Positions 11,568 to 58,517 of a DNA stretch of 58,807 nucleotides are shown one piece after another. The first letter of the stretch is position 1. Each line of letters starts with the position of its first letter. The stretch spans positions 1 through 58,807 of the IMG/VR virus record IMGVR_UViG_3300005332_000001. One strand, given 5' to 3'. The position numbers and the translations under genes were made by a program. Under the pieces are notes generated by a model. It was not told where the DNA came from and searched no databases. It saw only the letters and a list, made by a program, of their open reading frames with translations. Source of the DNA: a virus (lineage: Duplodnaviria > Caudoviricetes).

Positions 11568-11767
11568 CGCACTACCTCTTTCTCTGGCTTCGTGGCGTCG
11601 ATCATGGCCAGCAATCGCACTCGCTTAGTGTCATCCCTGTCCAGGTGGATGGCATCATGCAGCGGGCAATTCAGGCATTCCCACTGGCCTGTTTCGTCCT
11701 CGTTCTGGATGTAGCGCCAGATAGGCGTGCGGCAGTCGCACTTGGCGGGATGTGGAGGTATTCTCAT
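11564..11767 (-). CDS. Small Zn-finger protein
   Basis: CDC...WECLNC; coupled overlaps. Confidence 0.65.
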   Translation of the reverse strand: MRIPPHPAKCDCRTPIWRYIQNEDETGQWECLNCPLHDAIHLDRDDTKRVRLLAMIDATKPEKEVVR

Positions 11768-12030: not shown

Positions 12031-12260
12031 TTCACACCTCTCACTCGATGGCAGGGGCATGTACACATGCCTGGATTCTTATCGATATCGCCCTCGCCGA
12101 ATGTCACCATGGCATTGAAGCGAGACATGCCCTTTTCCATCGCTAGGCAGGTGAGGGCGTCGTCATGCTTGCAATCGGTGCAATGGAAGCGGTGCCCTGG
12201 CTGAATCAGTGTGGGATCGATGACGATGGTTCCCGCGGGCAGTGGTGGTTTGTTCTTCAT
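12027..12260 (-). CDS. Small Cys-rich protein
   Basis: CTDC, CTCPCH; coupled overlaps. Confidence 0.6.
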   Translation of the reverse strand: MKNKPPLPAGTIVIDPTLIQPGHRFHCTDCKHDDALTCLAMEKGMSRFNAMVTFGEGDIDKNPGMCTCPCHRVRGVK

Positions 12261-13791: not shown

Positions 13792-14225
13792 GCCGCCACC
13801 ATTTCTTTCTCGGGTGCGCTCGGCACATCCATCGCCGCCAGGAGCAGCTCGATAAAGATGGCATTGGCGCGATTGTCTTTGCGTACCTCGCGTATGCCGT
13901 TGCTGGCATACCAGTAAGAGGTTTCCAGCGTGCGACCCAGCTGGCGGCGGAGCCACTGCTGCGAATAGCGTCCGAACCACGAGAGCACGTATGGGGCGAT
14001 CGGGGTACTGGCGGCGATGGCCAATGAGACGGGGGCATTGAGGCTGGCCAGGGCGGACTGCATAGCTTCCAGGGCAACGATACGCGCCTCTATGCGTACA
14101 TGCAGTTCTGAGAATGAGCGCCGTCCGTTCAGTGCAAAGAGCGGATGCCAGTGGTATTCGCCGCGGCGAAATGTGCACTCTACGGCGTATTCGCGTGCTA
14201 TAATATCAGTGATGGAATTGGGCAA
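13788..14225 (-). CDS. Hypothetical protein
   Basis: AGGAGGT RBS before TTG 14225. Confidence 0.65.
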   Translation of the reverse strand: MPNSITDIIAREYAVECTFRRGEYHWHPLFALNGRRSFSELHVRIEARIVALEAMQSALASLNAPVSLAIAASTPIAPYVLSWFGRYSQQWLRRQLGRTLETSYWYASNGIREVRKDNRANAIFIELLLAAMDVPSAPEKEMVAA

Positions 14226-28174: not shown

Positions 28175-29137
28175 TTATATGGCGAGAAACGTCCCGCTCG
28201 ACGCGTCAGGGCGCGCATGGCTGTATTTATTGGTGGTTGTCAGGCTCTTGTGACCCAGCGTATCGCGAACCAGGGTAACAGGTGCGCCGCGATCCAGGGA
28301 ATGGGAGCCGTGGGCATGCCTGAACCAGTGAGGCGAGACACGCGAGCGGATAACGACTTCGCCCTCCTTATTTGTTTCTCGGTACACCTCGACACCCGCC
28401 CTGATGGCCGCTTCCTCGACAATCCGATTGACCTGGCTGCGATCAAGGCGCCCGCCATTACTCTTTTTGCGTGACTGAAAAACGATCCCCATAGGGTCAT
28501 TGCCCCGGATTTCCAGGAGCGCCGCATAGGCCGCTGGCTTAATTAGCACCTCGCGGCTTTTTCTCCCTTTGCCAAAAAAGTGGACCTGTCCGTGTCCCTT
28601 TACCTTGCCGTCGCCAACATCCTGCCAGGTGAGCGCACACGCTTCAGAGACGCGCGCCCCAGCTGCGTACAGCAGATACAGCAGGGCGCGGTTCCTGGGG
28701 TCAGTTTCAAGCGCAATGATGCGCAGCACCTCAGCCTCGCTCATAATCCTGGCTGCCAGGTGATCCTCGACTTTGGGGGCACGCAAAGCCGCGCCCACAT
28801 TAAAGGTGGTGTAACCAGCTTTATGGCAAAAGGTGAGCAGGGATTTCACCGCACTAATCTTGCGCGCCTGGGTCGCTTCTGCCAGGGGCGTCAGGGATGC
28901 GGCGAACTGCTGAAGCTGGAGCAGATTCAGTTCCTGGAGCGGCGTATGCCCGGTGAACGCTGCCAGCGCGGCTATATCGCGTGTGTAGACCTCAGTAGTT
29001 GAGGCGGGCCGCTGTGCCAACCACATGGCTATCACTACCTCGTCAGTCGCACCAGGGGGCAGCGTGGTATTGACGCGATCATTCACCAAAGCGGGCAAGG
29101 TTTCCGGTTTTCTGCTTTTGCGAGAGCGAAACAGCAT
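28175..29137 (-). CDS. XerC/D-like tyrosine recombinase (resolvase type)
   Basis: RNRALLYLLYAAGARVSE; GKGRKSR; SPHWFRHAH; TLGHKSLTTTNKY. Confidence 0.93.
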   Translation of the reverse strand: MLFRSRKSRKPETLPALVNDRVNTTLPPGATDEVVIAMWLAQRPASTTEVYTRDIAALAAFTGHTPLQELNLLQLQQFAASLTPLAEATQARKISAVKSLLTFCHKAGYTTFNVGAALRAPKVEDHLAARIMSEAEVLRIIALETDPRNRALLYLLYAAGARVSEACALTWQDVGDGKVKGHGQVHFFGKGRKSREVLIKPAAYAALLEIRGNDPMGIVFQSRKKSNGGRLDRSQVNRIVEEAAIRAGVEVYRETNKEGEVVIRSRVSPHWFRHAHGSHSLDRGAPVTLVRDTLGHKSLTTTNKYSHARPDASSGTFLAI

Positions 29138-29153
29138 CAAACAACTTCCTTTC

Positions 29154-29183
29154 AATACAACAAAACGACACTTCTGTTGTATT
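29154..29183. other. dif/lox-like recombination site
   Basis: AATACAACAAAA-CGACAC-TTCTGTTGTATT: 12-bp arms (11/12), 6-bp spacer, next to recombinase start. Confidence 0.65.
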
Positions 29184-29275: not shown

Positions 29276-29494
29276 ATGCTCTGCCAGGACACCGATAAGC
29301 GCATGGAAGCGATACATATCCCCAGCGAAACCATTCTGCTTGCTCAGAAGATGCAGCGTATAGTCGGTGTGATCACTGATGAGAATAAAGACGGCAATGG
29401 TGAAATCATCTTTAAGCTAAAAGTTGCTGGTGGAAAAATTAGTCGGGTCCTAGATTTCGCTGGTAAATGGTTTCCTGGGAATAAGAAGAAGTAG
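29276..29494 (+). CDS. Small leader protein (DUF2292/YezD-like)
   Basis: GNGEIIFKLKVAGGKISRV pattern; first ORF of late transcript. Confidence 0.6.
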   Translation: MLCQDTDKRMEAIHIPSETILLAQKMQRIVGVITDENKDGNGEIIFKLKVAGGKISRVLDFAGKWFPGNKKK

Positions 29495-29496
29495 CC

Positions 29497-29573
29497 GACA
29501 AGCAGCCTTCTGGGCCAAGCGGGCGTAAACAAAACAAAGTCGTTGACGAGCAGCCTTCTGGGCCAAGCGGACG
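29497..29573 (+). repeat. Two 29-bp direct repeats (48-bp period)
   Basis: GACRAGCAGCCTTCTGGGCCAAGCGGRCG at 29497 and 29545. Confidence 0.95.
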
Positions 29574-37379: not shown

Positions 37380-37410
37380 ATACTCAATCATTGAGTATTC
37401 AATCATTGAC
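37380..37410. promoter_or_regulatory. Palindromic operator-like tandem overlapping TTGACA
   Basis: ATACTCAAT-C-ATTGAGTAT; second copy TATTCAATCATTGAC. Confidence 0.5.
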
Positions 37411-37436
37411 AACAAGCAGGAGAATACGGTACACTT

Positions 37437-38117
37437 ATGGGAGAAGAGAACAATCCACCAGCGCCCCAGGCGGGTGCTGGTGATCCGATAAATCCACCGG
37501 GCCAGGCGCCCACTACACCACCGACTGATCCCCAGGCGGGAGAAGGTCAAAAGCCACCAAAGAGCGCTGACGACTATGAGCGCATGATTGCCGAACTGCG
37601 TAAAGAGAGCGCTGCCCATCGTACCAAACTCAAAAAGTTTGAGGATGAAGAGGCCAAGCGGCTTGAAGCGCAACTGACCGAGCAGCAGAAAAAGGATAAG
37701 CAATTCGCTGATCTGCAAAAAGCCCACGATGATGCACTCCGCTCTCACCAGGAGTACAAGGTATCCACTGAGGTACGCTTGCAAGCGGCGCAAATGGGCT
37801 TCGCGGATCTGAGCGATGCTACCAGACTGCTTGACTGGTCACAGATCACCTACGACGATGATGGCACGCCCAACAACGTGGCCGCACTGCTCAAAGACCT
37901 GCTCAAGGCCAAGCCGTATCTTGCAGGTAAGCCAGCGGCAACACCACCAACGAGTGGAGGCGCGACCAATCCGCCGCGCTCGCAGACCAGCGGGCAGCAG
38001 GAGATCACCGACGCTTTCATTGCGCAGCTTACACCGGCTCAGTATAGTAGCCTTACTCCTGACATGAAACTCAGGGTCAGTCAGTATATGCAGAGCAGGG
38101 TCGACCAGCGCCGATAA
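37437..38117 (+). CDS. Capsid scaffolding protein
   Basis: Pro-rich N-terminus, ELRKESAAHR coiled coil, LLKAKPYL; precedes capsid. Confidence 0.85.
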   Translation: MGEENNPPAPQAGAGDPINPPGQAPTTPPTDPQAGEGQKPPKSADDYERMIAELRKESAAHRTKLKKFEDEEAKRLEAQLTEQQKKDKQFADLQKAHDDALRSHQEYKVSTEVRLQAAQMGFADLSDATRLLDWSQITYDDDGTPNNVAALLKDLLKAKPYLAGKPAATPPTSGGATNPPRSQTSGQQEITDAFIAQLTPAQYSSLTPDMKLRVSQYMQSRVDQRR

Positions 38118-38124
38118 AAATGAT

Positions 38125-38195
38125 GATCTTTTATACCTTGTCCTGAGCACCGGCCACGTGTCCGATGTTCTGGAGAGGGTGATGGGAGATAGAGC
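38125..38195 (+). promoter_or_regulatory. RBS-sequestering hairpin, copy 1 (capsid 5' UTR)
   Basis: 55/71 identical to 42167-42236 with four compensatory pairs. Confidence 0.8.
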
Positions 38196-39122
38196 ATGTC
38201 GCTCAACAATTTTATACCCCAGATTTGGGCCGATACCCTTCTGCCCGCTCTGCGCCTGAATCTGGTCTACGGCAATCTTTTCAACGACGATTACCAGGGC
38301 CAGATTGAGAAGATGGGAGACACGGTGAAGATCAACGCCATCGGCGATATCACCGTGAGCAACTACACAAAAGATACCGACCTGAACCCACCCCAGGCGC
38401 TCACAGACGCTCAATCGATGTTGGTCATTAACCAGGCCAAATATTACAACTTCGACGTTGATGACGTTGACGCGGCACAGAGCAGCGTGAATGTCATGAC
38501 CGAAGCCATGTCCTGGGCCGCGTACAAGATCGCGCTGGGCATGGATCAATTCTATGCCGGGTATTATACCGACGCGCTGGTCGCCAACCTCGTCGGTTCC
38601 TCTGGCTCTCCAGTCGTGCCGCAGGCCGCCACTCAGGCCAATATTGGCGGCGGCCAGACCGTGTATGACTACCTGGTCATCCTCGGCCAATTCCTCACGC
38701 AGGCCGGCGTCCCCAAGAAAGGCCGCTGGGCAGTGCTGCCACCGTGGGTCCGCGTCCTCCTGCTCCAGGATATCCGTTTTACCTCATTTAACACGCCTGA
38801 GGCGCGATTGACCATCACCAGCGGCAAGCTGGACGCTTCTGCCGGTATGGCGACCGATGCCTATCTCGGGCAGATCGACGGGATGGATTGCTACGAGAGC
38901 GTCAACGCCCCGCACCTCGGCGGCACGGTCGGCGCGACGGGCTCCCAGGATGTCGTGATGGCTGGCCACCGGATGGCGCTCACCAAGGCCGAGGGCATCA
39001 ACAAGGTCGAGGCTTATCGCCCGCCCTACCGCTTCTCGGATGCCGTGAAAGGTCTCGCATTGTACGGCGCGAAGACCGTGCGCCCGTATGCATTGGCCGT
39101 CGCGTACCTACAACACCCGTAA
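38196..39122 (+). CDS. Major capsid protein
   Basis: NNFIPQIWA; GDTVKI; FDVDDVDAAQS; FSDAVKGLALYGAKTVRP. Confidence 0.93.
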   Translation: MSLNNFIPQIWADTLLPALRLNLVYGNLFNDDYQGQIEKMGDTVKINAIGDITVSNYTKDTDLNPPQALTDAQSMLVINQAKYYNFDVDDVDAAQSSVNVMTEAMSWAAYKIALGMDQFYAGYYTDALVANLVGSSGSPVVPQAATQANIGGGQTVYDYLVILGQFLTQAGVPKKGRWAVLPPWVRVLLLQDIRFTSFNTPEARLTITSGKLDASAGMATDAYLGQIDGMDCYESVNAPHLGGTVGATGSQDVVMAGHRMALTKAEGINKVEAYRPPYRFSDAVKGLALYGAKTVRPYALAVAYLQHP

Positions 39123-39146
39123 GGCGGGAGAAAGGAGACACACGAG

Positions 39147-39602
39147 ATGGCGAGAACATCACTTCCCATCACGAACCTGGCCGCCAACAGCGCGGTCACG
39201 AACTTGACCAATGCGGGCGCGAACATGACTGCCGTAGACAACGTCAATGGCATGACCATCGCCATGCCCTCAAATGTTATCCCGGCTCAGGGCTCAGGCG
39301 AGCGCCTGGTGCTCCTGGTCTTGAACACCAACGGCGTCGGCCAGACGGTCACGGTACGCGCTGCGACAAAGGACGGCGGCGCTTCCAAAGCCGGCGCGGG
39401 CACGCAGGGTCCACCATTCACGCCTGGATTTGAAGGCGGCAAGGGGGATTTCACGAGTGCAGCCATGACCGCAACCACTGGCATCGGGGTCATCGGGCCG
39501 TTCGATCCGGCGCGCTTTGTGCAGCCTGACGGCACGATCAGCGTGGACTTTTCCGGGGCCACCGGCTTTGTCTCGGCGCTCCTGCTCCAGCGCGCATTCT
39601 AA
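39147..39602 (+). CDS. Capsid decoration/minor structural protein
   Basis: Follows capsid; IGPFDPARFVQPDG. Confidence 0.7.
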   Translation: MARTSLPITNLAANSAVTNLTNAGANMTAVDNVNGMTIAMPSNVIPAQGSGERLVLLVLNTNGVGQTVTVRAATKDGGASKAGAGTQGPPFTPGFEGGKGDFTSAAMTATTGIGVIGPFDPARFVQPDGTISVDFSGATGFVSALLLQRAF

Positions 39603-39625
39603 TACGAGAAAGCGAGACATTGTCC

Positions 39626-40015
39626 ATGAGCGAAACGGCAACCGCAACCGAAACGGCAACACTTGCTCCGATGACACCGGGAGGCGTCTGGATGGTTGCG
39701 CCCGGCGAAAACATGCCCCCTGTCTACGTCGTGGCGCGTGAGCACCAGCACAGGCTGATGACGCGTAGCCAGGAAGAGGGCGGCCCTTGGTACGTGGTGC
39801 CTGATCCGCGTGACCCCCACGCCGTGCGCGTGCAGTCAGAGGAGGCAGATCTGGCAAAGCGGCTGGCAGAGCTGCAAGCCATGCGCGCCCAGAAGATGCG
39901 CGAGCACGAACTGCGTGCCCAAATCGCGACATTGGAGGCGGAACTCTTGCCTGGTGAGTCGGCTCAACCAGCGGAAAAGCCCGAAGCTCGGCATACTGCT
40001 GGGAAGTCGAAATAA
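39626..40015 (+). CDS. Hypothetical protein
   Basis: Operon order; coiled-coil end. Confidence 0.65.
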   Translation: MSETATATETATLAPMTPGGVWMVAPGENMPPVYVVAREHQHRLMTRSQEEGGPWYVVPDPRDPHAVRVQSEEADLAKRLAELQAMRAQKMREHELRAQIATLEAELLPGESAQPAEKPEARHTAGKSK

Positions 40016-40027
40016 GGAGATGCAGCT

Positions 40028-40690
40028 ATGCCTGTGAGACCTACGATGGCGCAGTTGATCGCACGCGTCAGATTGCTCATAGCCGACCCAGTCGGACCAA
40101 ACAACCAGTTCCTGGATCAGGACATCCAGGACACGCTGGATGAGTCCGTGGACTTCTTGCGCTATGAGAGCCTGATGATCGCACCAACGATCATGAATGC
40201 GGCGTCAACGGGCAACCAGGCAAGCACGATCTTCATCAATTACTTCTCAAAATACCAGTGGTGGGAACAGGATGTGGTGCTCCAAGGCTACTCGAACGGC
40301 CAGGCCTGGGTTGTTATCGCGCCTGCGCAGAGCGATTACATCAACGGCCACTGGTGGTTTGAGACACCGAGCCTGGAATTTACCGCGCCCACGGTTCCAG
40401 GCCAGTTGCCGCCGATCTTCGCAACGGGCAAGGTCTATGACCCATATGGCGCGGCTGCGGATTTGCTGGAGTTTTGGTCAGCGACGCTGGCGGCGGCCTA
40501 CGACGTGACGGTCGATGGCCAGACGATGCGCCGCTCGCAACTAATGCAGGCAAAGCTCACGCTGGCCGCGCAATACCGGCGCAAAGCCAAACCGCGTGTC
40601 GCAAAGATGGACCGACGCGACGTGCTGCCACAGATCGACTCGATGAAAATGCGCCTGCTCGATAACAGCGACACGGTGAAGGGAGCATAA
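40028..40690 (+). CDS. Head-tail connector-like protein
   Basis: RVRLLIAD..FLDQDI; YGAAADLLE; position. Confidence 0.7.
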   Translation: MPVRPTMAQLIARVRLLIADPVGPNNQFLDQDIQDTLDESVDFLRYESLMIAPTIMNAASTGNQASTIFINYFSKYQWWEQDVVLQGYSNGQAWVVIAPAQSDYINGHWWFETPSLEFTAPTVPGQLPPIFATGKVYDPYGAAADLLEFWSATLAAAYDVTVDGQTMRRSQLMQAKLTLAAQYRRKAKPRVAKMDRRDVLPQIDSMKMRLLDNSDTVKGA

Positions 40691-40693
40691 GCT

Positions 40694-41080
40694 ATGCCAA
40701 TGCTGCCGATTTCCGCTGCCGAACTGGCCCTGATCCAGGCCGATGCTGCCGCAGCGGCGTGTGACCAAGCCTGCACGATCAAACGTGCGGCGCGCACGCC
40801 TGACGCGCAGGGCGGCGCCAGTGTGACGTGGAACGTTGTTCTGCAAAATGGTTCGAGCACGGTCAACGCAGGCATGGCTGAGCCGAGTTCCACGCAACTC
40901 GCGAACTATCAATATATGATTGGTTCCCTGGCGGCCTGGCAGATTCGCTTCCCGGTCGGAACTGACGTTCAGGAGCAGGATCAGCTCATCATCGGCGGGC
41001 AAACGCTCAACGTAGTGAAGATCCTGACGCCTCGCTCGTACCCGGCGCTCGTAACTGCCCTGGCCGCGGAGGTGAAGTAA
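40694..41080 (+). CDS. Head closure/adaptor protein
   Basis: CTIKR..PDAQGG..W; FPVGTDV..QDQLII. Confidence 0.75.
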   Translation: MPMLPISAAELALIQADAAAAACDQACTIKRAARTPDAQGGASVTWNVVLQNGSSTVNAGMAEPSSTQLANYQYMIGSLAAWQIRFPVGTDVQEQDQLIIGGQTLNVVKILTPRSYPALVTALAAEVK

Positions 41081-41529
41081 TGGCTGATGCATCGGGTGCG
41101 ACACAAGCGGCATTCATTGCCCGCCTGAGAGGGGATGCGACGCTGCAAGGACTCATGACCAGCGGCTCAAGCCCCGAGTGGAGCATTTACGACCAGGGCG
41201 GCGGCGGCATTATCACGCCAGTCTTTCCATATGTGTATGTGCATCCGATCGCCTCTCAAAAAGGGGCTGCTTGGGTGATGGGAACAGATGCCAGCGATGT
41301 GTTCATGCTGGTCAACGTCTACACGCGCTACGAGGGCTTTGCACAGGCGCGGGCGATTGCCGCGCGCTGTTATCAGTTGCTCGATGGACCATCAGGAGCG
41401 GCACCACTGGTTATCACTGGTTTCGCTACGGTCTCGGTGACCCATGCCAACCGCCAGGAGCTAGAGGAGACCCAGGACAGCCTGGTCCAGCATATCGCGG
41501 ATCGGTACACGATCATGACGCAAGGATAG
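41080..41529 (+). CDS. Tail terminator (DUF3168-like)
   Basis: ARLRGDATL; IYD; FPYVYV. Confidence 0.75.
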   Translation: MADASGATQAAFIARLRGDATLQGLMTSGSSPEWSIYDQGGGGIITPVFPYVYVHPIASQKGAAWVMGTDASDVFMLVNVYTRYEGFAQARAIAARCYQLLDGPSGAAPLVITGFATVSVTHANRQELEETQDSLVQHIADRYTIMTQG

Positions 41530-41539
41530 GAGCACCTGT

Positions 41540-41887
41540 ATGGCTGGAGTGGTACTCGGCACAGTCGGGATCGATAAGATCATAGGGCAAGTCGCGCAAG
41601 GCATTGCCAACATGGAGGAGCGGGTTGACCGGGCTGTGCAGAAAGCAGGACTCGACTGTGAGCGCTATGCCAAGCAGCGCTGCCCAGTGGACACAGGAAA
41701 CCTGCGCGCTTCCATTACTTATGAGAACACAGGGCGGTTCCAGTGCATGGTAGGGACCAACGTCGAGTACGCCCCCTACGTTGAGCTGGGTACGAGTCGC
41801 CAGGCGGCTCAACCCTATCTCTTCCCGGCCTATGCGCGGGCAAAGTCCAAACTCATGGACGCATTGAAAGCGATCAGGATGGGATAA
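41540..41887 (+). CDS. HK97 gp10-family tail component
   Basis: PVDTGNLRASI; YAPYVELGTSRQAAQPYLFPA. Confidence 0.92.
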   Translation: MAGVVLGTVGIDKIIGQVAQGIANMEERVDRAVQKAGLDCERYAKQRCPVDTGNLRASITYENTGRFQCMVGTNVEYAPYVELGTSRQAAQPYLFPAYARAKSKLMDALKAIRMG

Positions 41888-42157
41888 ATGAGCAAAGTAC
41901 GAATCGTCAACAACGGCCAGCCAGGCTGGATGACGCAGGTCACGGACGCCGAAACAGGTAAGCCGATCCCGATGGTCAGGCATATTGATATCTCGCTCGG
42001 CGTGCAGGGTGTGCCGACGGCCACAATCTTCACGCACGTCTTGCCAGAGATCGATGTGACCGTTGAAGGTGTCATCAAAAACACCTGTCCCTGTTGCGGG
42101 CAGGAAGTACCAATTCTCAACACGCCGGAAGCGCCGCCCGCGCCCACTGGCGAATAA
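41888..42157 (+). CDS. Hypothetical protein
   Basis: TAAATG junction; CPCCG. Confidence 0.65.
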   Translation: MSKVRIVNNGQPGWMTQVTDAETGKPIPMVRHIDISLGVQGVPTATIFTHVLPEIDVTVEGVIKNTCPCCGQEVPILNTPEAPPAPTGE

Positions 42158-42166
42158 CAACTTACC

Positions 42167-42236
42167 GATCTTTTGTATCTCGGCCTGAGCACCTGGCACG
42201 CTCAGATGTTCTGGCGGGGATGATGGAGGATACATC
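42167..42236 (+). promoter_or_regulatory. RBS-sequestering hairpin, copy 2 (tail tube 5' UTR)
   Basis: Paralog of 38125-38195; GGAGG lies in the paired 3' arm. Confidence 0.8.
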
Positions 42237-42638
42237 ATGGGTAACGCAGTTGCCGGTTATGGCGGAAGCGTCAAAATCGGAGCGAACACTGTTGCCAACG
42301 TCAAGCAGTGGGAGCTGCCACTTGGCGCCGACCTCTACGACGTGTCAGTCCTGGGTAACCAGTGGAAGCAATATGTACCTGGTTTGCTCGGCAGTGACGC
42401 CAAGATCGACGCATTCCTTGATCTGACCGATACCAACGGCCAGGTCGCGATGCAAACAGCTATCCTCAATGGCACATCCGTCTCGCTTACCCTGCTCACG
42501 TCAACGGCAGGTGGTGCCACGCAGCACACCTATGCAGGAACGGCGTTTGTGAAAGGCATTGACTATAAAGATCCTGTCAATGCCCCGGAAGAAGTCTCGC
42601 TCACGCTCGCGTTCAGCGGCGCGATCACCTACACCTAG
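42237..42638 (+). CDS. Major tail (tube) protein
   Basis: QWEL..DLYDVS..WKQYVPGL; YAGTAFV; position. Confidence 0.85.
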   Translation: MGNAVAGYGGSVKIGANTVANVKQWELPLGADLYDVSVLGNQWKQYVPGLLGSDAKIDAFLDLTDTNGQVAMQTAILNGTSVSLTLLTSTAGGATQHTYAGTAFVKGIDYKDPVNAPEEVSLTLAFSGAITYT

Positions 42639-42652
42639 AAACGAGGTGATCT

Positions 42653-43309
42653 ATGGGCACTCCTATCGCCGGATTCGGGGGCAGCGTGATTATCACTTCT
42701 ACTCCCAACGTGGCTTTGAGTAACTACAACCTAACGGACGCCGGGGACCACAAGACGTTCAACGTGCCATCTGCTGATTTCGGCACGAAACGCTACTGGG
42801 ATCGCACGGCCACGTTTGTCGTTCAGACCGCGCCTGATGGCGTAACCTGGACCACGGTAACGAGCGGTTTCACGATTCGCTACGTCACCGGCCAGGTGTT
42901 ATTCACAAACCCGGTCGCGGGCGCTACACCGTCATGCCGCATCCAGACTGGAGCCTATCTTCCTTTCAGCACCTTTGCCAACATGAAGCAGTGGGAGGCC
43001 GCCCCTGCTCTGGATCTCTATGACTCAAGCACCTTTGGCAGCGTATGGAAAACCTACGTGCCAGGTATGCTTGGCGCTGATATCAAGCTGACCCAGTTCT
43101 ATAGCGATCTCACTTTCTCCAACCAGATCACCGCCAACACGGCCTTTATCGTCTCCTGCCTGACTGGACGCAACGCGACAGAGCGATTTGAGGGCTTCGC
43201 GCGCCTCAAATCGGACGATATCAAGGTGCCAGTGAGCGGACTGGAAGAGGAAAACTTGAACTATACCGTCGATGGCCAATGGTATTACTTCGCCGGCCAA
43301 TACGCATAG
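42653..43309 (+). CDS. Second tail-tube paralog with inserted domain
   Basis: AGFGGSV N-terminus and KQWE..DLYDSS..WKTYVPGMLG match 42237 product. Confidence 0.8.
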   Translation: MGTPIAGFGGSVIITSTPNVALSNYNLTDAGDHKTFNVPSADFGTKRYWDRTATFVVQTAPDGVTWTTVTSGFTIRYVTGQVLFTNPVAGATPSCRIQTGAYLPFSTFANMKQWEAAPALDLYDSSTFGSVWKTYVPGMLGADIKLTQFYSDLTFSNQITANTAFIVSCLTGRNATERFEGFARLKSDDIKVPVSGLEEENLNYTVDGQWYYFAGQYA

Positions 43310-43873: not shown

Positions 43874-46072
43874 ATGGATCTGGAGACGCTTGTTGTCAGC
43901 TTCGGTGCTGACCTGACCGATCTGACGCGCGGTGTTGCTGGCGCGAAGATGCTGCTGACCGGCTTCGGTCTCGCAGCACTTGGCGTTGGTGCGGCGTCCG
44001 TCAAGATGGCAGGCGACTTCCAGGCATCCATGACATCTCTGGTGACAGGTGCTGGTGAAAGCCAGAAGAACATCGGACTGGTGAGCCAGGGCATCCTCAA
44101 GATGGCGACAGAGACGGGCACATCCACGAAGCAGCTCTCCGACGGCATGTATATGATCGAGTCCGCGGGCTATCACGGGCAAGCAGGCCTGGATGTGCTG
44201 CGCGCGGCTGCCGAGGGCGCGAAGGTCGGCAATGCTGACCTGGGCGTAGTCGCAGATGGCGTGACCACGATCATGACCGACTACGCCGATAAGAACGTGA
44301 GCGCAGCTGCGGCCACTAACTTCTTGGTGGCCACCGTCGCTTCTGGCAAGACCCATATGCAGGACCTCTCAGCCTCCCTGGCCTCCATTCTGCCCACAGC
44401 CAGCTCCGTGAAGGTGGGACTGGGCGACGTGATGGGTGCGATGGCGACGATGACCGGTGAAGGAGTGCCAGCAGCCGATGCGGCGACGTATCTGCGTCAG
44501 ACGCTCATGCAACTGGCCTCGCCCTCCAAATCTGGTGCCAAGGCGTTGGAAGACATTGGCCTGTCGGCACAGCAGGTCAGTGATTCCATGAAAGTCTCCC
44601 TGCCGGCGACGCTCGGGATGATCATGGACCATCTGAAAAATAAATTCCCCGAGGGGTCCATCGCCTTCCAGGATGCGCTTAAAAACATCGCCGGCGGCAG
44701 CAAGCAGATGCAGGGCATGCTGGATCTCACCGGCACGCACCTGCAAACCTTCAAGGATAACGTGGACAACATCTCTGGGGCGGTCAAGAAAGGTGGCAGC
44801 GGGATCTCGGGGTGGTCCGATGTGCAGAAGGACTTCAACTTCAAAATGGACCAGGCAAAGGCGGGCGTTGAAACGCTGGGCATCGACATCGGCAGTGTAC
44901 TGCTCCCGCCACTAAGCAATATCGTTGGGGCTATTGGTCCCATCCTCACCAATTTTGATAACTGGTTTGTGAAAAGCGGACTACTTCAGAATACTCTGAA
45001 CACGCTTGGTACATCGATCCAAAATGTCTCGCACTTTCTGAATGATCACCAGGGCATCATTTTGGGAGTGGCGGGTGCTCTCACGGCTTTCTATATCCCG
45101 GCGATCATTAAATCAGGCGTGGAGTCCGTGGTGGCCGGGGCCAAGATGGCCAGTCAGTTTATCACGAAGATCGTCATGGCTGGCGTCGAGGGCTACCAGG
45201 CGGCAGCCAAGCTGGTGCTCATGGTTGGTCAGTTTATTGCGTCCGGCGTGCAGGCGGTGATTGCTGGCGCCAAGATGACAGCCTCTTTTATCGCGTCCAT
45301 CGTCAAGGCGGGCGCATCCGCTGTAGTTACTGCTGGCCAATTCATCGCCTCGCTCATTCCGGCGATCATCTCGTTTATCGCCCAGTCTGTCGTGGCCGCT
45401 GCGACCGCCATACCGGGCATGATTGCAGGTTTTATCGCGTGGACAGCGGGGGCGTGGGCCGCTGCAGCTGCCACGATTGCCGCGACCTGGCCGATTTTGG
45501 CGATCATTGTCGCCATCGGGCTGCTGGTGGGTGCGATCATCTACCTCTGGACGCATTGGTCGCAAGTAACCGCCTGGGTCAAGGCGGCGTGGATTGTGAC
45601 CACTATCATTCTGCAAGAGGCACTCAAAAACGTAGCACATTTCTTCCAGAACGTCTGGGATGGCATCGTGGGCGGGATCAAGTCTGGGATAAATTGGATA
45701 ATCGGAGCCATTGATAACTTTATAGATGGTGTCAATAAGCTCGGCATTGACTTTGGCCCGATCCACATCCATCCGCCAAAGATCCCGGACATTCCAAAAC
45801 TCGCAATGGGCGGCGTGGTGCCTCCTGGTGGTATGGCGGTTGCTGGAGAGACCGGCAAGCCTGAGCTGGTCCTGGGCGGCACAAGCGGCGCGACGGTGCT
45901 GGGCGTCTCACAAACAGCATCCCTGATGCGCGGAGGCGGTGGTGGCAAACAAACACTGGTGATTCCGCTGATTGTCAACGGTCACGAGCTCGCACGCGCA
46001 GTGATCGACGACCTGGGCGAGGCGTTGCTTTCCGGTATGCGCAGCGCAGGCCATCCGGTGGGAGGGATCTAA
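43874..46072 (+). CDS. Tape measure protein
   Basis: Long Ala/Gly helical protein; IPKLAMGG..AGETGKPE C-terminus. Confidence 0.93.
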   Translation: MDLETLVVSFGADLTDLTRGVAGAKMLLTGFGLAALGVGAASVKMAGDFQASMTSLVTGAGESQKNIGLVSQGILKMATETGTSTKQLSDGMYMIESAGYHGQAGLDVLRAAAEGAKVGNADLGVVADGVTTIMTDYADKNVSAAAATNFLVATVASGKTHMQDLSASLASILPTASSVKVGLGDVMGAMATMTGEGVPAADAATYLRQTLMQLASPSKSGAKALEDIGLSAQQVSDSMKVSLPATLGMIMDHLKNKFPEGSIAFQDALKNIAGGSKQMQGMLDLTGTHLQTFKDNVDNISGAVKKGGSGISGWSDVQKDFNFKMDQAKAGVETLGIDIGSVLLPPLSNIVGAIGPILTNFDNWFVKSGLLQNTLNTLGTSIQNVSHFLNDHQGIILGVAGALTAFYIPAIIKSGVESVVAGAKMASQFITKIVMAGVEGYQAAAKLVLMVGQFIASGVQAVIAGAKMTASFIASIVKAGASAVVTAGQFIASLIPAIISFIAQSVVAAATAIPGMIAGFIAWTAGAWAAAAATIAATWPILAIIVAIGLLVGAIIYLWTHWSQVTAWVKAAWIVTTIILQEALKNVAHFFQNVWDGIVGGIKSGINWIIGAIDNFIDGVNKLGIDFGPIHIHPPKIPDIPKLAMGGVVPPGGMAVAGETGKPELVLGGTSGATVLGVSQTASLMRGGGGGKQTLVIPLIVNGHELARAVIDDLGEALLSGMRSAGHPVGGI

Positions 46073-49000
46073 TGAGCAGCACACTCACCGTGAAAGTTGG
46101 CGGCACTGCCTACACGCTCATCGAAAACACGCTCAAAATCACCAACAGAGTGGATGATAAGGACAAAGCGACATTCACCCTCAGAGACGACACCGGCACA
46201 GTGGTATTTTCCAAAGGCCAGATGGTGAGCATTGTGGATAGCTCGCTTGGCACACTCTTTGCTGGTTTCGTCAATAAGCCAACAATGAGCAACCTCTTCC
46301 CGAGCGCAACCAATCTCTGGTCAATGGATTGTGTCGATCAGTTCTATGTGCCTGCAAAGCGCACGCACAAGCGCATGCACAAAAATCAACACGCTGGCCC
46401 GATTGCCGCGCTCCAGGTCCAGCAGTATTTGGCGCCGGACGGCGTCAGCGGCAACTTTGGGCTGGACTGGACGGAGCTGCAGTCCGACTGGCAAAATGGC
46501 ACGCTCTCCGGGGCCGCGGCGGCAACGAATGCGAGCACAGGCAACACCGGTGGGGGTGATCTGGAGCTGGCTGTCGCCGGCAGCGTGGTGACCTTCTCGC
46601 AGACTTCGCAAGCCGATTTCAATGCTGGCATCACCGGAGGCGGCCTGACCTCTCCGGCCAGCGGGGGCGTCACTTTTACACCCACACAGGCAATCAAGTT
46701 CGCTGCCACTGAAAGCTTGCCTGGCATAACAAATCCCGCCCTAAAAATGAAGATCTGGTCCGGGTCGTATACGATTGCCGCCTCCGACTACCTCATTTTT
46801 GATGTGTGGACCGCGGATAGCTCGCCGCAACAAATGGCCACGGTGGATCTTGTGATGACTGATGGTACGACGTTAAGCCTCTCGCAAGCCGCGATTGGTG
46901 TTGACGTTCAAGGTGTTGGGCCTGGGATCTCCAATGACCTTTCAGGACTGGCAACCAATACCTGGTACAATCGCCGTTTCTTTCTGGATGCTGGCGGTCC
47001 GTGGGTGGGCAAGGTGGTCTCGTATGCGGCTGTGTGCTTTGGCGGGGCCAACCAGGGCAATTACACGGCTTACTTCCGCAACGTTCTTATCCAGAACGGA
47101 GGCATCACGAAACTCACCATCTTTGGACCCGCCGCGACGGCTACGCAGACAACGCCGCAGCCGGTGCAAAACAGCGGCTACACCAATATCAGTTGTAGCG
47201 TGGTGACCTCCTACGAGCGTCATGGGGCGCTGGCCAGTCCTTTGTACGATCTTTCGGGCGCGGCGATAGCCAATAGTTCGCAGCTCACCTGGTCGATCAT
47301 CCTGCCCAACAACAGCTTCACCTACTCCGTCACGGCGTCGATTGACAGCGGCGTAACCTTTTTGCCTTGTACCAATCAAGGCGCGATCCCTGGGCTCCTC
47401 CCCGGCATGAATTTGTCGGGCGTCAAGATCAGACTGACCTATGTTTTCGACAATGCTGGCAACGACCCAACGTTGACCCCGCTGCTCTCGACGATCACCG
47501 GCACGATCAATCCCTCGTATGCGAGTACGAAGAGCGACATCGTCAATGTGAATAATGGCGCCGCTGCCTGGAACGCGGGCACACTCACCAATCTCAATTT
47601 GAGCGGTAGCAACACGTTGCAACTCAACGGCTATGCGCGGAATTGGGATGATGCAAATTATGGCAGTCAAACGCTCTACGGCGCGACCAGTCCGGCTCAG
47701 GGCGTCCTGAAAAAACAATTCTTTTTAACCAGTGGAACGGGCACGGATGTCAAATCACGCATGGATTTTGCCGGGAGCAATTGGCAAAATTTCACGATGG
47801 AGTGTGATGTCACGCTCCTTTCCGGCAATTGTGGACCATCGCTCGTCTACCGCACGACGAATTGGGGGACGGCAAACGATTCTTATGCGTACATGGTGTA
47901 TTTGAACACCACACTTGTTCAACTGGGCCATGGAACAAATAGCACTGGGGCAGGAGCATTTACCAACATTTCCACGGTGGCTCTGACACTAACAGCAGGC
48001 ACCACATACCGGCTCAAAGTGATTGTAAACGGCAACAATCATCAAGTGTTCGTGAACGATGTCAACTACATCAATGTGAACGACAGCACGTACACTGCTG
48101 CTGGCTACGTCGGACTGCGTCTTTTTAATGGTTCCGGTTCTACACAAACCGCGACTTTTGACAATTTTGGGATTATGGCGACGCTTTCCGGCACCTGGGT
48201 GAGTCCCGCCATTGATATCCATAGCCTAACCACCATTAGCAATTCGCAGATCATCCTTCAGATTGATCCGTCGGTGAATACCAGCATCTCGACGTTCCTG
48301 GTCGAGATCTCGCTTAACAATGGCTCGACCTGGACTACATGCCCAAACGCGTTGACGACGCCGCTGGTCTTGACTCAAGGCTACTTCCAATCACTGCCCG
48401 TGCCGGGGCTGTCGCCAGGTACAAACGTGTCGAGCTACACGCAGGTGAAAATCCGGCTCACCATCAGCGCGTCCACCGCAGCCACCAACCTCTTTATGCC
48501 CGACATCCAGGCGGTGACCCTTTTTGTTGTGGGCGCGTATAGCTCAACTGGCACGCGCTCCAACGCACCTCTCGCCTGGGACAGCATGACGCGGCTTCCT
48601 GTTGGATCTGGCTGGGGCAACGCATCCAACGGGCAGGCCTATACGCAAGTTGGCACTGGTACAACAGCAGTCACGAGCAACGAGGCAACCATCACCAACA
48701 CCACTGGTGATGTGCACATGCGCCCAGGCAGTGCGACACAGCAGGATACAGACGGAACGGTACGCTTTTCACTCTCAGCCAGCGCAATGACCGCCGGCAT
48801 GGAGCTGCACTATAACGACTCTAGCCACTATTACCGCCTGGTCGCCTCCACGACCTCGCTTAACATTGTGCGCAACTCTGGAGCTGGGAATGTCACCGTT
48901 GCCACGTCGAGTGTCACGCTCACAACCGGCACATTCTACCGAATGCGATTCCGCGCTGTGGCAAGCGGATTGACCTCACTGACGCTGTATGGCCGCGTGT

Positions 49001-52000
49001 GGTTGGATGGCACAACGGAGCCAACGAATACTTGGAATGTGACCGTTGCTGATAGTCTGTACAAGCCTACGGTCCTGGCTGACGCGCCAATTCGCTACTA
49101 CAGGCTCAACGATACAAACACCACTGCTGTAGATATTGGCAGTGGAGCACAAAATGGCACGCTCCATGGCACGATCACCGAGAGTCAATCTGGACTGCTG
49201 ACCGGCGATAGCGACAATTGTATGCTCTTTGATGGCTCTACAGGTTATGTCTCGCTTCCGACGACCGGACTGCCAACTGGAGCAAGCGCCTGGTCAATCG
49301 AGGCGTGGTGTAAAATCTCAGCTATTCCGTCTGCAACGTACCACTCCATAGCGAGCTTTGGCACCTATGGTACCAATCAGAAGATGGCTGGCTTATCCAT
49401 CAAGAGCAGCGGCACAACGGCGCAATTCATGTGCACGACCTACAATGGAGACATTTTAAGCAGCAATATCAGTGCCAATACCGCTTATCACGTTGTTGGC
49501 ACGTACGACGGCACAAATACGAGATTATACGTCAATGGCGCTTTAGCAGCAGGCCCAACGCCATTTACGCTTACCATCGCGTTGGCTTTCGCCAGCATTG
49601 GAGCGGAAAATAGCACGGCGCAAGATTTCTTCTCCGGTCTTATCGATGAAGTTGCCATCTACTCCACGGCTTTGAGTGCTGCGCAGATAGCCAATCACTA
49701 CAACACAGGCATTGCTTCAGGCGGTTTTGCGCTCATGGCGAATGGCACCGGGGTCGCGAGCTTCGATTCGTTTCGAGTCACTGCTTACCCAGATCCGTCC
49801 GCGCCACTAACCAATGCAGGTCGCGCGAACAACTCTGTCGTGAATTGGAACGCCAACCTGCCTGCCAATACCGGGCTAACGGTTTACACCTCAACAGACA
49901 ATGGCGTAACATTCCAACAGGCCAGCGCCGCGGGCAACCAGATCCCAGGCATTTCGACACTGCTCTACAGCACGCTTGTTTTTCAGCGCAAACCATCGGG
50001 CTACTATCATCTCTCAGAGAGTAGCGGCACGACTGCCAATGATAGCTCTGGCAATGCTTATAGCGGAACGCTGCATGGCGGGGTAACACTTGGCGCGGCA
50101 GGTGCGCTGCAAGGGCCGGGCGAGCTGGGCAACACCTCTATGAGCTTCGATGGCTCAACGGGCTTTATCCAGCTTGCCAGCGCACTCAAAACGGATGGTT
50201 GGAGCAATCTGTCAGTCTCGTGCTGGTTCAATACGAGTGCCAGCGTGGGGAGCGTGACCAGGCTGCTCGCGAACGATAACCCGGCGGTCAGTCATAATGG
50301 GATCGATCTGGGGCTGAACGCTTCCCTCGCTGGCTGTTTCTGTACGATTGGCAATGGCGCAACGAGTGCCACCGCCACATTCAGTACGGCGCTTTTGACT
50401 GGCACATGGTATCACCTGCTCGCGACCTGGGACGGTACCACCATCAAGCTCTCCCTCAATGGCGCACAGCAAGCCAGCATCGCGCTCTCAGGGAGCGTAG
50501 GAACGGCGGCGCAAGCCCTGGCGATTGGTTACAATCCTGCTCTCGCCAGCAATTTCTTTAAAGGCAGCATCGCGGAGGTTGACCTGGCCAATCCGACCAC
50601 GGTCAACGCTGTTGCACCGCTCACCGCGGCTGATGTGCTGGCGCGCTACAACGCCGGACTCTCGCAGGTTGGTACCGTCGCCAATGACTCGTTCACGAGC
50701 GATACGCACACGAGCTATACCAGCACATTCGGGAGTGGTGGCGGTGTGGCCACCTGGACCTGGGATACTGCCAATAGCAGGCTAATTGCTGTTGGCGGTA
50801 CAAAGGCGATCCTGCTCTACAACAACCTGGGAGCCTACGATAACGACCTGTGGATCGACCTCTACCAGAGCGAGAATGCTGGCCTCGTGTGGGGCTGGCA
50901 GAACGCCAGCAACTATTATGAGCTGATCGTGAAAGATAGCGGCGCGTCCGTCTCGCCTAATACCGTGATCCTCAATAAGATCTCAGGCGGCGTAACTACG
51001 CAGCTCGCCACGGCGTCTATCACGTTTCAGGCACAAACCCACCATCGGTTCCATGTGACCATGCTTGCAGGCACCATAACCGTCTCGATGGACGAGAACC
51101 AGGTCCTGGCCTACACCGATAGCACACCGCTGCCGGCGGGATCGAGTGGCCTGCGCAACGACGTGGGAACGTCGTACATATACCTCCTACAAATCACGCC
51201 ACAGCCGGCGAATCTGGCGGCCACGGCGCTGTGTAGCAAGCACGTGCTGACAACCAGCTCACCAACCGCTACACCACAAGTGACGGACCACCAGGCGTTC
51301 GCTGCCGATTCTTCCTTTGGCGTTGGCGTGCTGGTACCGAGCGCAGACTATCGACAAGCGCATGTGAGCGACAATATCGACGACTTGAACACCAAGAGCA
51401 ATTATTGGTGGTCGATCAACGGGCAAAAAAACATCACGTTCCAGGCGCGCACTGCGACCAACTCGCCCTACATCTTGCAATCAACAGATATACTGCTCGG
51501 TACCATGCCAACGGTCGAGTACAGCGGCGATCTCTATAGGAATCGCCAGATCTTAAAAGGGGTCTACGACACGGCCACGTTTGGCGAGGTCAGGCATGGG
51601 GATGGCCAGACGCGCACCTGGGCACTCTCCAACCCGGTGGTGGCGCCACCAACCATTACCCTGAACGGTCTGGCGGTTTCCGTCGGTCTGCAGGGCAAGG
51701 ACAGCGGGCGGCAGTACTACTACACGCTGAATGGCAGCAGTATCGTGCAGGATAACAGCCAGGTGGTCTTGCAGGCTACGGACACGCTTGCTATCACCTA
51801 CACTGGCTCGTTTGGCATCGATTTCTCGATTGATAACACTGGCCAGTTTCCAAACACGGTCAGCCAGGCGCAGCTCGCGGCGGTCGATAACACGACTGGC
51901 ATCGTCGAACAGGTGGAGGATGTGAGCCAGCAGGCCATGAACAAGGCTGCGGCGACCGCATATGCCAACCAGTTGCTGCAGCGATATGGAACATCGGGCG

Positions 52001-52272
52001 CCAGGACGATCAAGTGCCAGACACTGCACGCTGGGCTGAAAGCGGGGCAGTCGCTGCCGATTTTCATTCCTCAGCTGAACATTTTTGACTCGGTGTTTTT
52101 GATCGTGGAGGTGGGTATTTCCGCGCGAACCATCAGCACGCCGACGGGTGGCGCGATCCAGTACGTTTTTGTGGTAACTGCATCCGAGGCGGCGGCTTTG
52201 GCCTCCTGGGCGAAGATGTTCAACAAGATCATGCGCTCAATAAGCGGCAGTAAGCCGAGCGCGAAAGCCTAG
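46072..52272 (+). CDS. Large tail tip/adhesin with LamG/ConA-like and DUF1080-like domains
   Basis: 2066 aa; two VLADAPIRYYRL..FDGSTG..YHVVGTYDG-type modules; C-terminal YRNRQ tail-hub-like segment. Confidence 0.88.
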   Translation: MSSTLTVKVGGTAYTLIENTLKITNRVDDKDKATFTLRDDTGTVVFSKGQMVSIVDSSLGTLFAGFVNKPTMSNLFPSATNLWSMDCVDQFYVPAKRTHKRMHKNQHAGPIAALQVQQYLAPDGVSGNFGLDWTELQSDWQNGTLSGAAAATNASTGNTGGGDLELAVAGSVVTFSQTSQADFNAGITGGGLTSPASGGVTFTPTQAIKFAATESLPGITNPALKMKIWSGSYTIAASDYLIFDVWTADSSPQQMATVDLVMTDGTTLSLSQAAIGVDVQGVGPGISNDLSGLATNTWYNRRFFLDAGGPWVGKVVSYAAVCFGGANQGNYTAYFRNVLIQNGGITKLTIFGPAATATQTTPQPVQNSGYTNISCSVVTSYERHGALASPLYDLSGAAIANSSQLTWSIILPNNSFTYSVTASIDSGVTFLPCTNQGAIPGLLPGMNLSGVKIRLTYVFDNAGNDPTLTPLLSTITGTINPSYASTKSDIVNVNNGAAAWNAGTLTNLNLSGSNTLQLNGYARNWDDANYGSQTLYGATSPAQGVLKKQFFLTSGTGTDVKSRMDFAGSNWQNFTMECDVTLLSGNCGPSLVYRTTNWGTANDSYAYMVYLNTTLVQLGHGTNSTGAGAFTNISTVALTLTAGTTYRLKVIVNGNNHQVFVNDVNYINVNDSTYTAAGYVGLRLFNGSGSTQTATFDNFGIMATLSGTWVSPAIDIHSLTTISNSQIILQIDPSVNTSISTFLVEISLNNGSTWTTCPNALTTPLVLTQGYFQSLPVPGLSPGTNVSSYTQVKIRLTISASTAATNLFMPDIQAVTLFVVGAYSSTGTRSNAPLAWDSMTRLPVGSGWGNASNGQAYTQVGTGTTAVTSNEATITNTTGDVHMRPGSATQQDTDGTVRFSLSASAMTAGMELHYNDSSHYYRLVASTTSLNIVRNSGAGNVTVATSSVTLTTGTFYRMRFRAVASGLTSLTLYGRVWLDGTTEPTNTWNVTVADSLYKPTVLADAPIRYYRLNDTNTTAVDIGSGAQNGTLHGTITESQSGLLTGDSDNCMLFDGSTGYVSLPTTGLPTGASAWSIEAWCKISAIPSATYHSIASFGTYGTNQKMAGLSIKSSGTTAQFMCTTYNGDILSSNISANTAYHVVGTYDGTNTRLYVNGALAAGPTPFTLTIALAFASIGAENSTAQDFFSGLIDEVAIYSTALSAAQIANHYNTGIASGGFALMANGTGVASFDSFRVTAYPDPSAPLTNAGRANNSVVNWNANLPANTGLTVYTSTDNGVTFQQASAAGNQIPGISTLLYSTLVFQRKPSGYYHLSESSGTTANDSSGNAYSGTLHGGVTLGAAGALQGPGELGNTSMSFDGSTGFIQLASALKTDGWSNLSVSCWFNTSASVGSVTRLLANDNPAVSHNGIDLGLNASLAGCFCTIGNGATSATATFSTALLTGTWYHLLATWDGTTIKLSLNGAQQASIALSGSVGTAAQALAIGYNPALASNFFKGSIAEVDLANPTTVNAVAPLTAADVLARYNAGLSQVGTVANDSFTSDTHTSYTSTFGSGGGVATWTWDTANSRLIAVGGTKAILLYNNLGAYDNDLWIDLYQSENAGLVWGWQNASNYYELIVKDSGASVSPNTVILNKISGGVTTQLATASITFQAQTHHRFHVTMLAGTITVSMDENQVLAYTDSTPLPAGSSGLRNDVGTSYIYLLQITPQPANLAATALCSKHVLTTSSPTATPQVTDHQAFAADSSFGVGVLVPSADYRQAHVSDNIDDLNTKSNYWWSINGQKNITFQARTATNSPYILQSTDILLGTMPTVEYSGDLYRNRQILKGVYDTATFGEVRHGDGQTRTWALSNPVVAPPTITLNGLAVSVGLQGKDSGRQYYYTLNGSSIVQDNSQVVLQATDTLAITYTGSFGIDFSIDNTGQFPNTVSQAQLAAVDNTTGIVEQVEDVSQQAMNKAAATAYANQLLQRYGTSGARTIKCQTLHAGLKAGQSLPIFIPQLNIFDSVFLIVEVGISARTISTPTGGAIQYVFVVTASEAAALASWAKMFNKIMRSISGSKPSAKA

Positions 52273-58187: not shown

Positions 58188-58517
58188 CTATACTTCAGCT
58201 AACATTGGTATCGTGGCGCACTGATCAATGGCCACCGTTTGTATCGTATCGCCGCTCCACCACTGGAAATGTGCCTCGGCCAGCGTCTCCTCCTGATCGA
58301 TGAGAATGCGCGTGATGTGCGCCGTCCACTTCGGCTTCACGTCCGGATCGCACATCTCAGGATGCGCGGCAACCTCATCGCGGATGCTCGTCCAAGTGGT
58401 GCTCTGCCAACCCTCTTGATAGCCCATGCGCTGCTGCATATGCGCCCACCAGCTCGGCATTTTTTGTATCTCAGGCTTGCTACGCTGAAACAGCCAGCGC
58501 AGCAGGAGTGTTCTCAT
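58188..58517 (-). CDS. Hypothetical protein
   Basis: AAAGGGG RBS; operon order. Confidence 0.7.
   Translation of the reverse strand: MRTLLLRWLFQRSKPEIQKMPSWWAHMQQRMGYQEGWQSTTWTSIRDEVAAHPEMCDPDVKPKWTAHITRILIDQEETLAEAHFQWWSGDTIQTVAIDQCATIPMLAEV

Follow-up and report, generated by a model that had tools for sequence, protein, structure and literature searches.

Here I describe a long RNA hairpin that stands directly upstream of the major capsid and tail tube genes in IMG/VR virus record IMGVR_UViG_3300005332_000001, a complete 58.8-kb genome of a tailed phage (Caudoviricetes) that was analysed over its whole length of 58,807 nucleotides and is called the window throughout. Both copies are predicted to hold the Shine-Dalgarno (SD) sequence of the following gene in a paired state, and related copies elsewhere vary in a manner that keeps the helix while leaving certain wobble pairs and a mismatch in place. 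I give a probability of about one half to the reading that the hairpin is a cis-acting translational operator, which keeps the SD occluded until a module of A-U and G.U pairs and a C.A mismatch in its upper stem has been recognised and the stem opened.

The two leaders were singled out in a first-pass annotation made from the letters alone, and what it observed in them is confirmed in full, its interpretation in part. Positions 38125-38195 (71 nt) and 42167-42236 (70 nt) are identical at 55 of 71 positions with one gap in a global alignment, and an ATG follows each of them directly, at 38196 for the capsid gene and at 42237 for the tube gene. When folded with RNAfold, each leader gives one long hairpin, and on the plus strand only: the capsid copy (38126-38190) reaches -31.2 kcal/mol (z -3.8; 1 of 200 shuffles equally good) and the tube copy (42168-42231) -28.9 kcal/mol (z -2.4; 6 of 200), whereas the reverse complements fold no better than their shuffles (z -0.33 and -0.69). 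The SD of the capsid gene, GGGAG at 38184-38188, lies within the 3' arm and pairs with the anti-SD strand AUCUUUU at 38126-38132 (as part of GGGAGAU in the minimum free energy fold), and that of the tube gene, GGAGG at 42225-42229, is paired likewise with AUCUUUU at 42168-42174. The four compensatory differences that had been proposed between the copies (C-G/U-A, U-A/C-G, U-A/G-C and G-C/U-A) turn out to be exactly those, among the 23 pairs of the covariance model introduced below, that differ on both sides, and all are still paired; three more pairs are changed on one side with pairing kept, and one apical pair is C/U, hence unpaired, in the capsid copy. Run with filters off over the whole window, the same model finds two sites only, at 79.5 bits (tube copy, 42166-42230) and 78.0 bits (capsid copy, 38124-38189), with the next plus-strand match at 11.6 bits (E 0.55) and the reverse strand at 21 and 14 bits versus 78 and 79.5; since the two sites stand alone in 58.8 kb, the hairpin pair is more than chance. 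The genes are also those that had been guessed, a major head protein at 38196-39122 (+; phrog_267, E 6.9e-56) and a tail tube protein at 42237-42638 (+; PF06199 Phage_tail_2, 31 bits with a cut-off of 23.8; phrog_10528 major tail protein).

Relatives of the capsid gene in IMG/VR carry the same upstream element with compensatory changes, and an alignment of 11 sequences (23 pairs in the RNAalifold consensus, compensatory changes in 10) served as the seed for the covariance model, R1. Loci were retrieved in three ways, by capsid similarity, by a fixed DNA pattern in IMG/VR (57 stretches, of which R1 confirmed 53 and did not confirm 4) and by the pattern in metagenome contigs (118 stretches, from which 80 loci were taken, with 49 matches in 46 loci), and the pooled R1 matches from IMG/VR, metagenome and metagenome-assembled genome (MAG) contigs number 85, or 81 distinct copies. 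When these 81 copies are aligned by fitting to the model, 95.8% of 1845 cells are paired versus 80.8% in shuffles and 46-56% in slid controls, 264 cells are changed on both sides versus 78 in shuffles and 25-60 in slid controls, and 16 of the 23 pairs show double changes, with none of 500 shuffles reaching any of these measures. The pattern scans fix part of both arms, so the conservation of TATCTC and GGGATGAT is inflated in the rows that they contributed; a capsid-retrieved sample of 40 distinct copies, which is free of this bias, is 96.8% paired and has double changes in 15 of the 23 pairs. The claim of a covarying and conserved RNA hairpin is borne out by the covariance model over the 81 copies and, judged by comparative sequence evidence, the hairpin is a real RNA family. 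Two copies from the same genome resemble each other no more than copies in general do (0.63 versus 0.59), which fits a shared rather than a genome-specific constraint; concerted evolution of the copies within a genome was considered and, by the same figures, is not seen.

The family has a hairpin length of 58-81 nt (most commonly 62 or 65) and about 23 base pairs. In the lower stem, (C)UUUUGUAUCUC is paired with GGGAUGAU(G/A)G(G/A)AG, and the final five or six paired positions are those of the SD, whose partners shift with GGGAG or GGAGG at pairs 6-98 (U-A 58, U-G 13, C-G 5), 7-97 (U-G 42, C-G 22, U-A 17) and 9-95 (U-A 42, C-G 19, U-G 17); because the partners follow the shifts of the SD, its pairing is, on this covariation, selected and the SD is part of the helix. 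A bulged G is found in 76 of 81 copies, three positions stay as wobble pairs where a single transition would give a Watson-Crick pair (U8.G96 in 75 copies, U15.G88 in 80 and G24.U79 in all 81), A23-U80 is invariant in 81 of 81, C28 stands opposite A76 in 60 and position 17/86 is G.G in 40 and a standard pair in 39. The upper-stem module consists of the invariant A-U, the invariant G.U, two covarying pairs and then the C.A mismatch; in the capsid copy of the window its 5' side is AGCAC at 38146-38150 (the A and G in the invariant A-U and G.U, the last C opposite A) and its 3' side, which holds the partners, is AUGUU at 38165-38169. The apical part beyond the last pair ranges from 2 to 21 nt. 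Beyond pairing alone, the three G.U positions, the constant A-U and the C.A mismatch suggest that some factor recognises both the shape and the sequence of the stem, and the invariant G.U pairs together with the poor folding and scoring of the reverse strand indicate that the element acts as RNA on the plus strand.

Its position is equally constrained, in that the model match ends 0-21 nt 5' of the start codon in 77 of 77 mapped copies, and 3-11 nt in 74 of them (the exceptions being an inserted HNH open reading frame (ORF), at 21 nt, and loci L189 and L243). The stop codon of the upstream gene lies 5' of the stem and never inside it in 57 copies, with a gap of 3-36 nt in 52; for the other five the script's choice of frame gave 43-61 nt, and these include the capsid copy of the window, where the gap by reading is 8 nt. 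Since a strand-specific and selected helix includes the SD and adjoins the starts of virion genes, it follows that its action is on the mRNA, at the initiation of translation or close to it.

The same anatomy would suit the main rival, RNase III-type processing, which I regard as possible rather than probable: a host endonuclease would cut the upper stem, the lower stem would fall apart and the SD would be freed, with the capsid or tube cistron gaining a 5' end of its own and the upstream mRNA keeping a 3' hairpin. RNase III substrates are irregular double-stranded RNAs some two turns long (at least 20 pairs), and the 23 or so modelled pairs, interrupted by three 1x1 mismatches and one bulge, reach such a length and irregularity; the strictly intercistronic setting, the association with high-copy genes (as expected of a processing and stabilising cassette) and the fact that a phage-encoded regulator would not be needed all speak for it as well. 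In addition, the lower stem alone is worth -11.0 and -9.1 kcal/mol compared with about -30 for the whole hairpin, and a two-strand lower stem as weak as this means that cleavage would release the SD, since it would not hold its own against SD:anti-SD pairing (-7.1 and -9.3 kcal/mol). Sites of this kind occur in the polycistronic mRNAs of several phages, as in the intercistronic R sites of T7, the lambda N leader and the early mRNA of SP82, and they resemble the hairpin described here in being long, irregular and intercistronic, in lying near an SD and in having several similar copies per genome, so that here too cleavage could activate translation. What sets the present hairpin apart from them is that its stem takes in the SD itself and that it conserves strict wobble and mismatch positions; its cleavage is hypothetical. 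RNase III, however, needs little primary sequence, so the invariant G.U, A-U and C.A are left unexplained by processing, as is the near-absence of C-G at the U.G positions, and the length of the apical part differs by up to 19 nt between copies.

Turning to occlusion, the SD has a predicted paired probability at 37 C of 0.99 in the capsid copy and 0.93 in the tube copy, and the energy computed for opening it is 11.0 kcal/mol for the capsid gene (rank 2 of 32 genes), 8.6 for the tube gene (rank 10 of 32) and 1.7 for the scaffold gene. So high an opening cost on the genes expected to be translated most suggests that the stem is opened or removed in late infection. Occlusion at the capsid gene also draws support from relatives that lack the motif: among 38 assessable relatives whose capsid is at least 60% identical to that of the window, the motif lies 5' of the capsid gene in 29 and is absent from 9, and five of these nine leaders have an SD-pairing hairpin of their own that is unrelated to it (L073:4186-4248, L076:3629-3691, L078:421-483, L082:6941-7003 and L065:2843-2905; -28.5 kcal/mol and z -3.7 in L078, -26.8 and z -3.5 in L082), with L033 ambiguous and three of nine without a hairpin. 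Loci with a capsid of 56% identity or less have the motif in 0 of 70 cases. A short CCUUUUGACC...GGGGAAGG element is common to L033, L073 and L076.

A run of U that pairs with an SD brings to mind RNA thermometers of the fourU or ROSE kind, which melt with temperature, and the hairpin is like them in pairing a U-rich strand (CUUUU) with GGGAG or GGAGG and in its G.U pairs, 1x1 mismatches and bulged G. Such a role is nevertheless scarcely credible: no Rfam thermometer matches even at E up to 10, the SD is predicted to remain closed up to 55 C (paired probability still 0.92 for capsid and 0.71 for tube), the conserved sequence of the upper stem would have no role and heat control of virion genes would have no obvious reason. 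Translational coupling, in which ribosomes finishing the upstream gene would melt the base of the hairpin and open the SD, gains something from the short distances between stop codon and stem: they measure 8 and 10 nt for the two window copies, and 23 of 57 copies have no more than 13 nt. I think it very unlikely all the same, for across the copies anything from 3 to 36 nt separates stop and stem, and in none of the 57 copies examined does the stop extend into the 5' arm, so most terminating ribosomes would not reach the stem; the genes 5' of the tube gene are likely low-copy and would not give high tube output, and the conserved upper stem would go unexplained. Finally, the stem might be a passive stabiliser that shields the ribosome binding site (RBS) region and the cistron from nucleases without gating translation. 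A stable hairpin next to high-output genes, with a bottom helix weak enough for ribosomes to invade, would be in keeping with that, but the invariant wobble and mismatch positions and the selected pairing of the SD would not be accounted for, and I judge it unlikely.

As a translational operator, the hairpin would work as follows. In the lower stem the SD would be paired with the U-rich anti-SD strand through G.U-rich pairs, and the intact hairpin would keep the RBS closed on major virion genes (capsid, often tube and sometimes others) until a trans-acting factor common to these phages, probably host-encoded, recognised the upper-stem module and opened or remodelled the stem, thereby allowing co-ordinated and high-level late translation. 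The effect of occlusion on expression, the binding of the factor and the opening of the stem are steps that I infer. Precedents for such control exist in the MS2 replicase operator (bound by coat protein), the Mu mom leader (opened by Com) and the operators of T4 RegA and gp32. The hairpin resembles these in being a cis-acting structure at a phage RBS, with sequence-specific conserved features in a stem that overlaps the RBS and with a protein expected to read it. It differs from the classical operators in being much longer (about 23 pairs), in being shared by several non-homologous virion genes per genome, in occurring in double-stranded DNA tailed phages of uncultured soil bacteria and in having a reader that is putative.

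Several observations weigh against the operator. The occlusion of the tube gene, at rank 10 of 32, is not extreme, and the large terminase gene ranks above the capsid gene. The bottom helix, taken as a two-strand duplex, has the weak energies given above (-11.0 and -9.1 kcal/mol), which are to be set against -7.1 and -9.3 for SD:anti-SD pairing, so the 30S subunit might simply invade it, and the hairpin would then attenuate mildly and not act as a switch. Tape-measure genes, which are low-copy, follow two of the copies; occluding the SD on the most abundant proteins is paradoxical unless it is opened; and a long irregular helix fits RNase III equally well. Furthermore, no phage regulator or opener was found, as five motif-bearing genomes share only the terminase subunits, the portal, an adaptor-like protein (220 amino acids, with weak Atlas leads only) and a tail protein in a tblastn comparison at E 1e-5 that would miss small and fast-evolving proteins. 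Pfam scans of 16 and 57 window ORFs, which mostly left out small ORFs, found no RNA-binding family other than the ASCH domain of a protein at 153-467 (-), which is not conserved in the five genomes compared. Because only packaging and structural proteins are shared, and copies within a genome are no closer than others, a host factor or a small, over-divergent protein is the likelier reader of the module.

An antisense RNA was also considered as the opener. The minus-strand RNA of 58459-58472 complements the anti-SD arm at 13 of 14 positions, the site, which reads ATTTTTTGTATCTC on the plus strand, repeating the 5' arm in isolation within a minus-strand ORF; the match is judged to be probably chance since similar isolated 12-mers occur in G176 and G178 on either strand, and no consistent antisense partner was found in the window, G176 or G178.

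What lies downstream of the hairpin can be told for 79 distinct copies (the gene is cut too short in the other 2), and it is a major capsid gene in 49, a tail-tube gene in 23, a tape-measure gene in 2, an inserted HNH endonuclease ORF in 1 and a gene for a protein without known family in 4. The capsids belong to two unrelated families, that of the window (phrog_267, 36 copies) and phrog_212/PF20911 GP7 (13 copies), and the tubes comprise PF06199 proteins (8 copies) and a protein of 335-343 amino acids in the tube position (15 copies). The latter is assigned as a tail tube as a lead only, from its gene position and from the Atlas, which places it near PF18906 Phage_tube_2 clusters with a score of 0.98 (itself a lead only). 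It has no Pfam match, its sole PHROG match is a weak one to a tail sheath (phrog_205, E 0.0017), the best E in a PDB profile search is 0.72 and an AlphaFold2 model from a 5-sequence alignment has a mean pLDDT (predicted local distance difference test) of 35.6 and is unusable. The first-pass annotation had called the switch dedicated to the two highest-copy virion proteins. The tie mainly to capsid and tube genes holds, and extends across non-homologous families, but exclusivity does not, given the 2 tape-measure genes and 4 genes of no known family. Sharing between capsid and tube likewise holds for the window and not for G173, G174 and G175, which carry one copy, 5' of the capsid gene only. 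Among records estimated to be at least 85% complete, the window, G171 and G177 have two copies (as does G172, estimated at 69% complete) and G176 and G178 three, and the motif precedes the capsid gene in every near-complete motif-bearing genome searched. In G178, which is complete, the two extra copies (L313:409-476 and 3703-3768) lie 14-17 kb downstream of the capsid gene, 5' of paralogous proteins of 244-248 amino acids and no known family, and the tube homologue there has no copy.

The motif also stays at the capsid start when something is inserted. At L013 an HNH ORF (164-1146; PF01844, phrog_1035) separates the scaffold gene from the capsid gene and is flanked by two copies, the second directly 5' of the capsid gene; the motif is portable between non-homologous genes and keeps its place at the capsid start even after insertion. 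The two L013 copies are 55% alike, as if from different lineages. In two relatives the capsid gene is split by a group I intron (RF00028; L079:7096-7311 at 73 bits and L016:3495-3694 at 52.4 bits) a few to 36 codons after the motif, and interruptions of similar size, with no Rfam match at gathering score, are present in the L068 capsid gene (after 2393) and the L222 tube gene (after about 1670).

That HNH and group I intron insertions cluster at or just after the hairpin, and that both arms are highly conserved in sequence, could be taken to mean that the element works on DNA, as a late promoter, a protein site or a hot spot for homing or recombination, or through the choice of transcript, with late transcripts starting inside the hairpin and lacking the anti-SD arm (as those of T4 genes e and soc do). 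No RNA polymerase, sigma factor or RNase III was detected by Pfam among the window ORFs scanned, and the lack of a detected polymerase or sigma factor leaves some room for this idea as regards the type of late promoter. The compensatory changes along the whole stem, the invariant G.U pairs, the strand-specific folding and the variable spacing between the arms all go against it, and no sigma-70-like site was found at either hairpin (the late promoters of these phages may be of another type), so I hold out very little for it. The nearest such site, which is also the best in the region, is at 37406-37435 (TTGACA, 18 nt, TACACT; 10 of 12 positions), directly 5' of the scaffold gene.

Start codons behind the motif are unusual in some relatives. 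Among capsid-A starts there are 14 ATG, 11 TTG, 3 GTG, 3 ATC and 2 ATT, and six relatives have AUC (L013, L018 and L080) or AUU (L083, L138 and L068) at the capsid start position, with an extended GGAGGUG SD and no in-frame AUG, GUG or UUG nearby.

Is the element already known? No family in Rfam 15 matches the hairpin, in line with the first-pass annotation, which did not recognise one, with 0 matches at gathering thresholds over the whole window, and at E up to 10 the weak matches in 37900-42500 (MH_s36, HOTTIP_1 and sR42) overlap neither copy. The tube leader had no blastn match at E up to 1 among 50,697 GenBank phage records, megablast of 37400-42700 against GenBank phages found none either, and the best capsid relative from an isolated phage is 45% identical. 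In full-text literature no description of the motif was found. A screen of IMG/VR has yielded 10,006 candidate structured RNAs (csRNAs), which like the hairpin are comparative-genomics motifs lying within 25 nt of phage gene starts, and for five of its unnamed candidates the gene downstream is reported to be that of a major capsid protein (PHA00201) (Fremin, Bhatt and Kyrpides, 2023; PMC10690425). A search of supplement files 3-6 of that paper for four core strings of the motif and for six contig numbers gave no match; the alignment archives of the paper lie outside the comparison, so overlap is possible. The hairpin looks like a family outside Rfam, set apart from those candidates by supplement files 3-6 only, and like a previously undescribed control element for virion-protein production in uncultured soil phages, with the same proviso as to the alignments of PMC10690425.

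The sole hint of a host is a MAG titled uncultured Ktedonobacterales bacterium, which has copies 5' of phage capsid and tube genes, and from this one hint the motif-bearing phages probably infect Chloroflexota. Of the genomes in this MAG's class, 151 were scanned with the model (34 candidates scored per genome) and 169 with the pattern; one genome matched in each scan, and both times it was the MAG itself. An origin in host chromosomes was rejected, with 150 (model) and 168 (pattern) other genomes of the class having no match, and the element looks phage-borne on these grounds, not a host motif copied by phages.

As for the surroundings in the window, the gene that ends 8 nt 5' of the capsid hairpin encodes the scaffolding protein (37437-38117, +; PF06810, phrog_2303). 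GP20-a and GP20-b (RF02991 and RF03003) are candidate cis-regulatory RNAs whose name refers to this same Pfam family (GP20 is PF06810); the hairpin differs from them in having no Rfam match. The 89-amino-acid ORF at 41888-42157 (+), known from the ORF list, ends 10 nt 5' of the tube hairpin and has no family match in Pfam or PHROGs. The window also contains two tyrosine recombinases and Cro/CI-type helix-turn-helix proteins, because of which the phage looks temperate by gene content. Elsewhere there are a PAPS-reductase-like protein flanked by C5 and N6 DNA methyltransferases (8992-14178, -), a tail protein of 2066 amino acids with Laminin_G_3 domains (46072-52269, +) and tandem direct repeats at 5654-5791 (69 nt, 96% alike), 8286-8375 (45 nt, 78%) and 29480-29573 (about 48 nt, 80%), the last of which adjoins a tyrosine recombinase gene (28178-29155, -).

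The relative amounts of virion proteins made by tailed phages are usually ascribed to the strength of each RBS. Here the genes expected to be translated best have their SD locked in a conserved and sequence-specific stem that is common to unrelated capsid and tube genes, and if this stem serves as a regulated operator or for processing, virion stoichiometry would be co-ordinated by a simple and portable module. With 81 distinct sequences and strong covariation, the hairpin is a clean candidate for a new Rfam family. Chloroflexota, the probable hosts, are not known to have a laboratory model, and should the stem have either of these roles, it would also give an initial look at how their phages express genes. 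A bolder and rather doubtful extension is that a post-transcriptional 'late regulon' has the hairpin as its operator, in which one factor, host-encoded or a small divergent phage protein, would read the module and turn on all major virion genes together. If true, the operator would do in translation what a late promoter does in transcription and could move between unrelated capsid, tube and tape-measure genes, and it might keep capsid and tube silent in lysogens or in early infection, for example hidden from defence systems that sense them.

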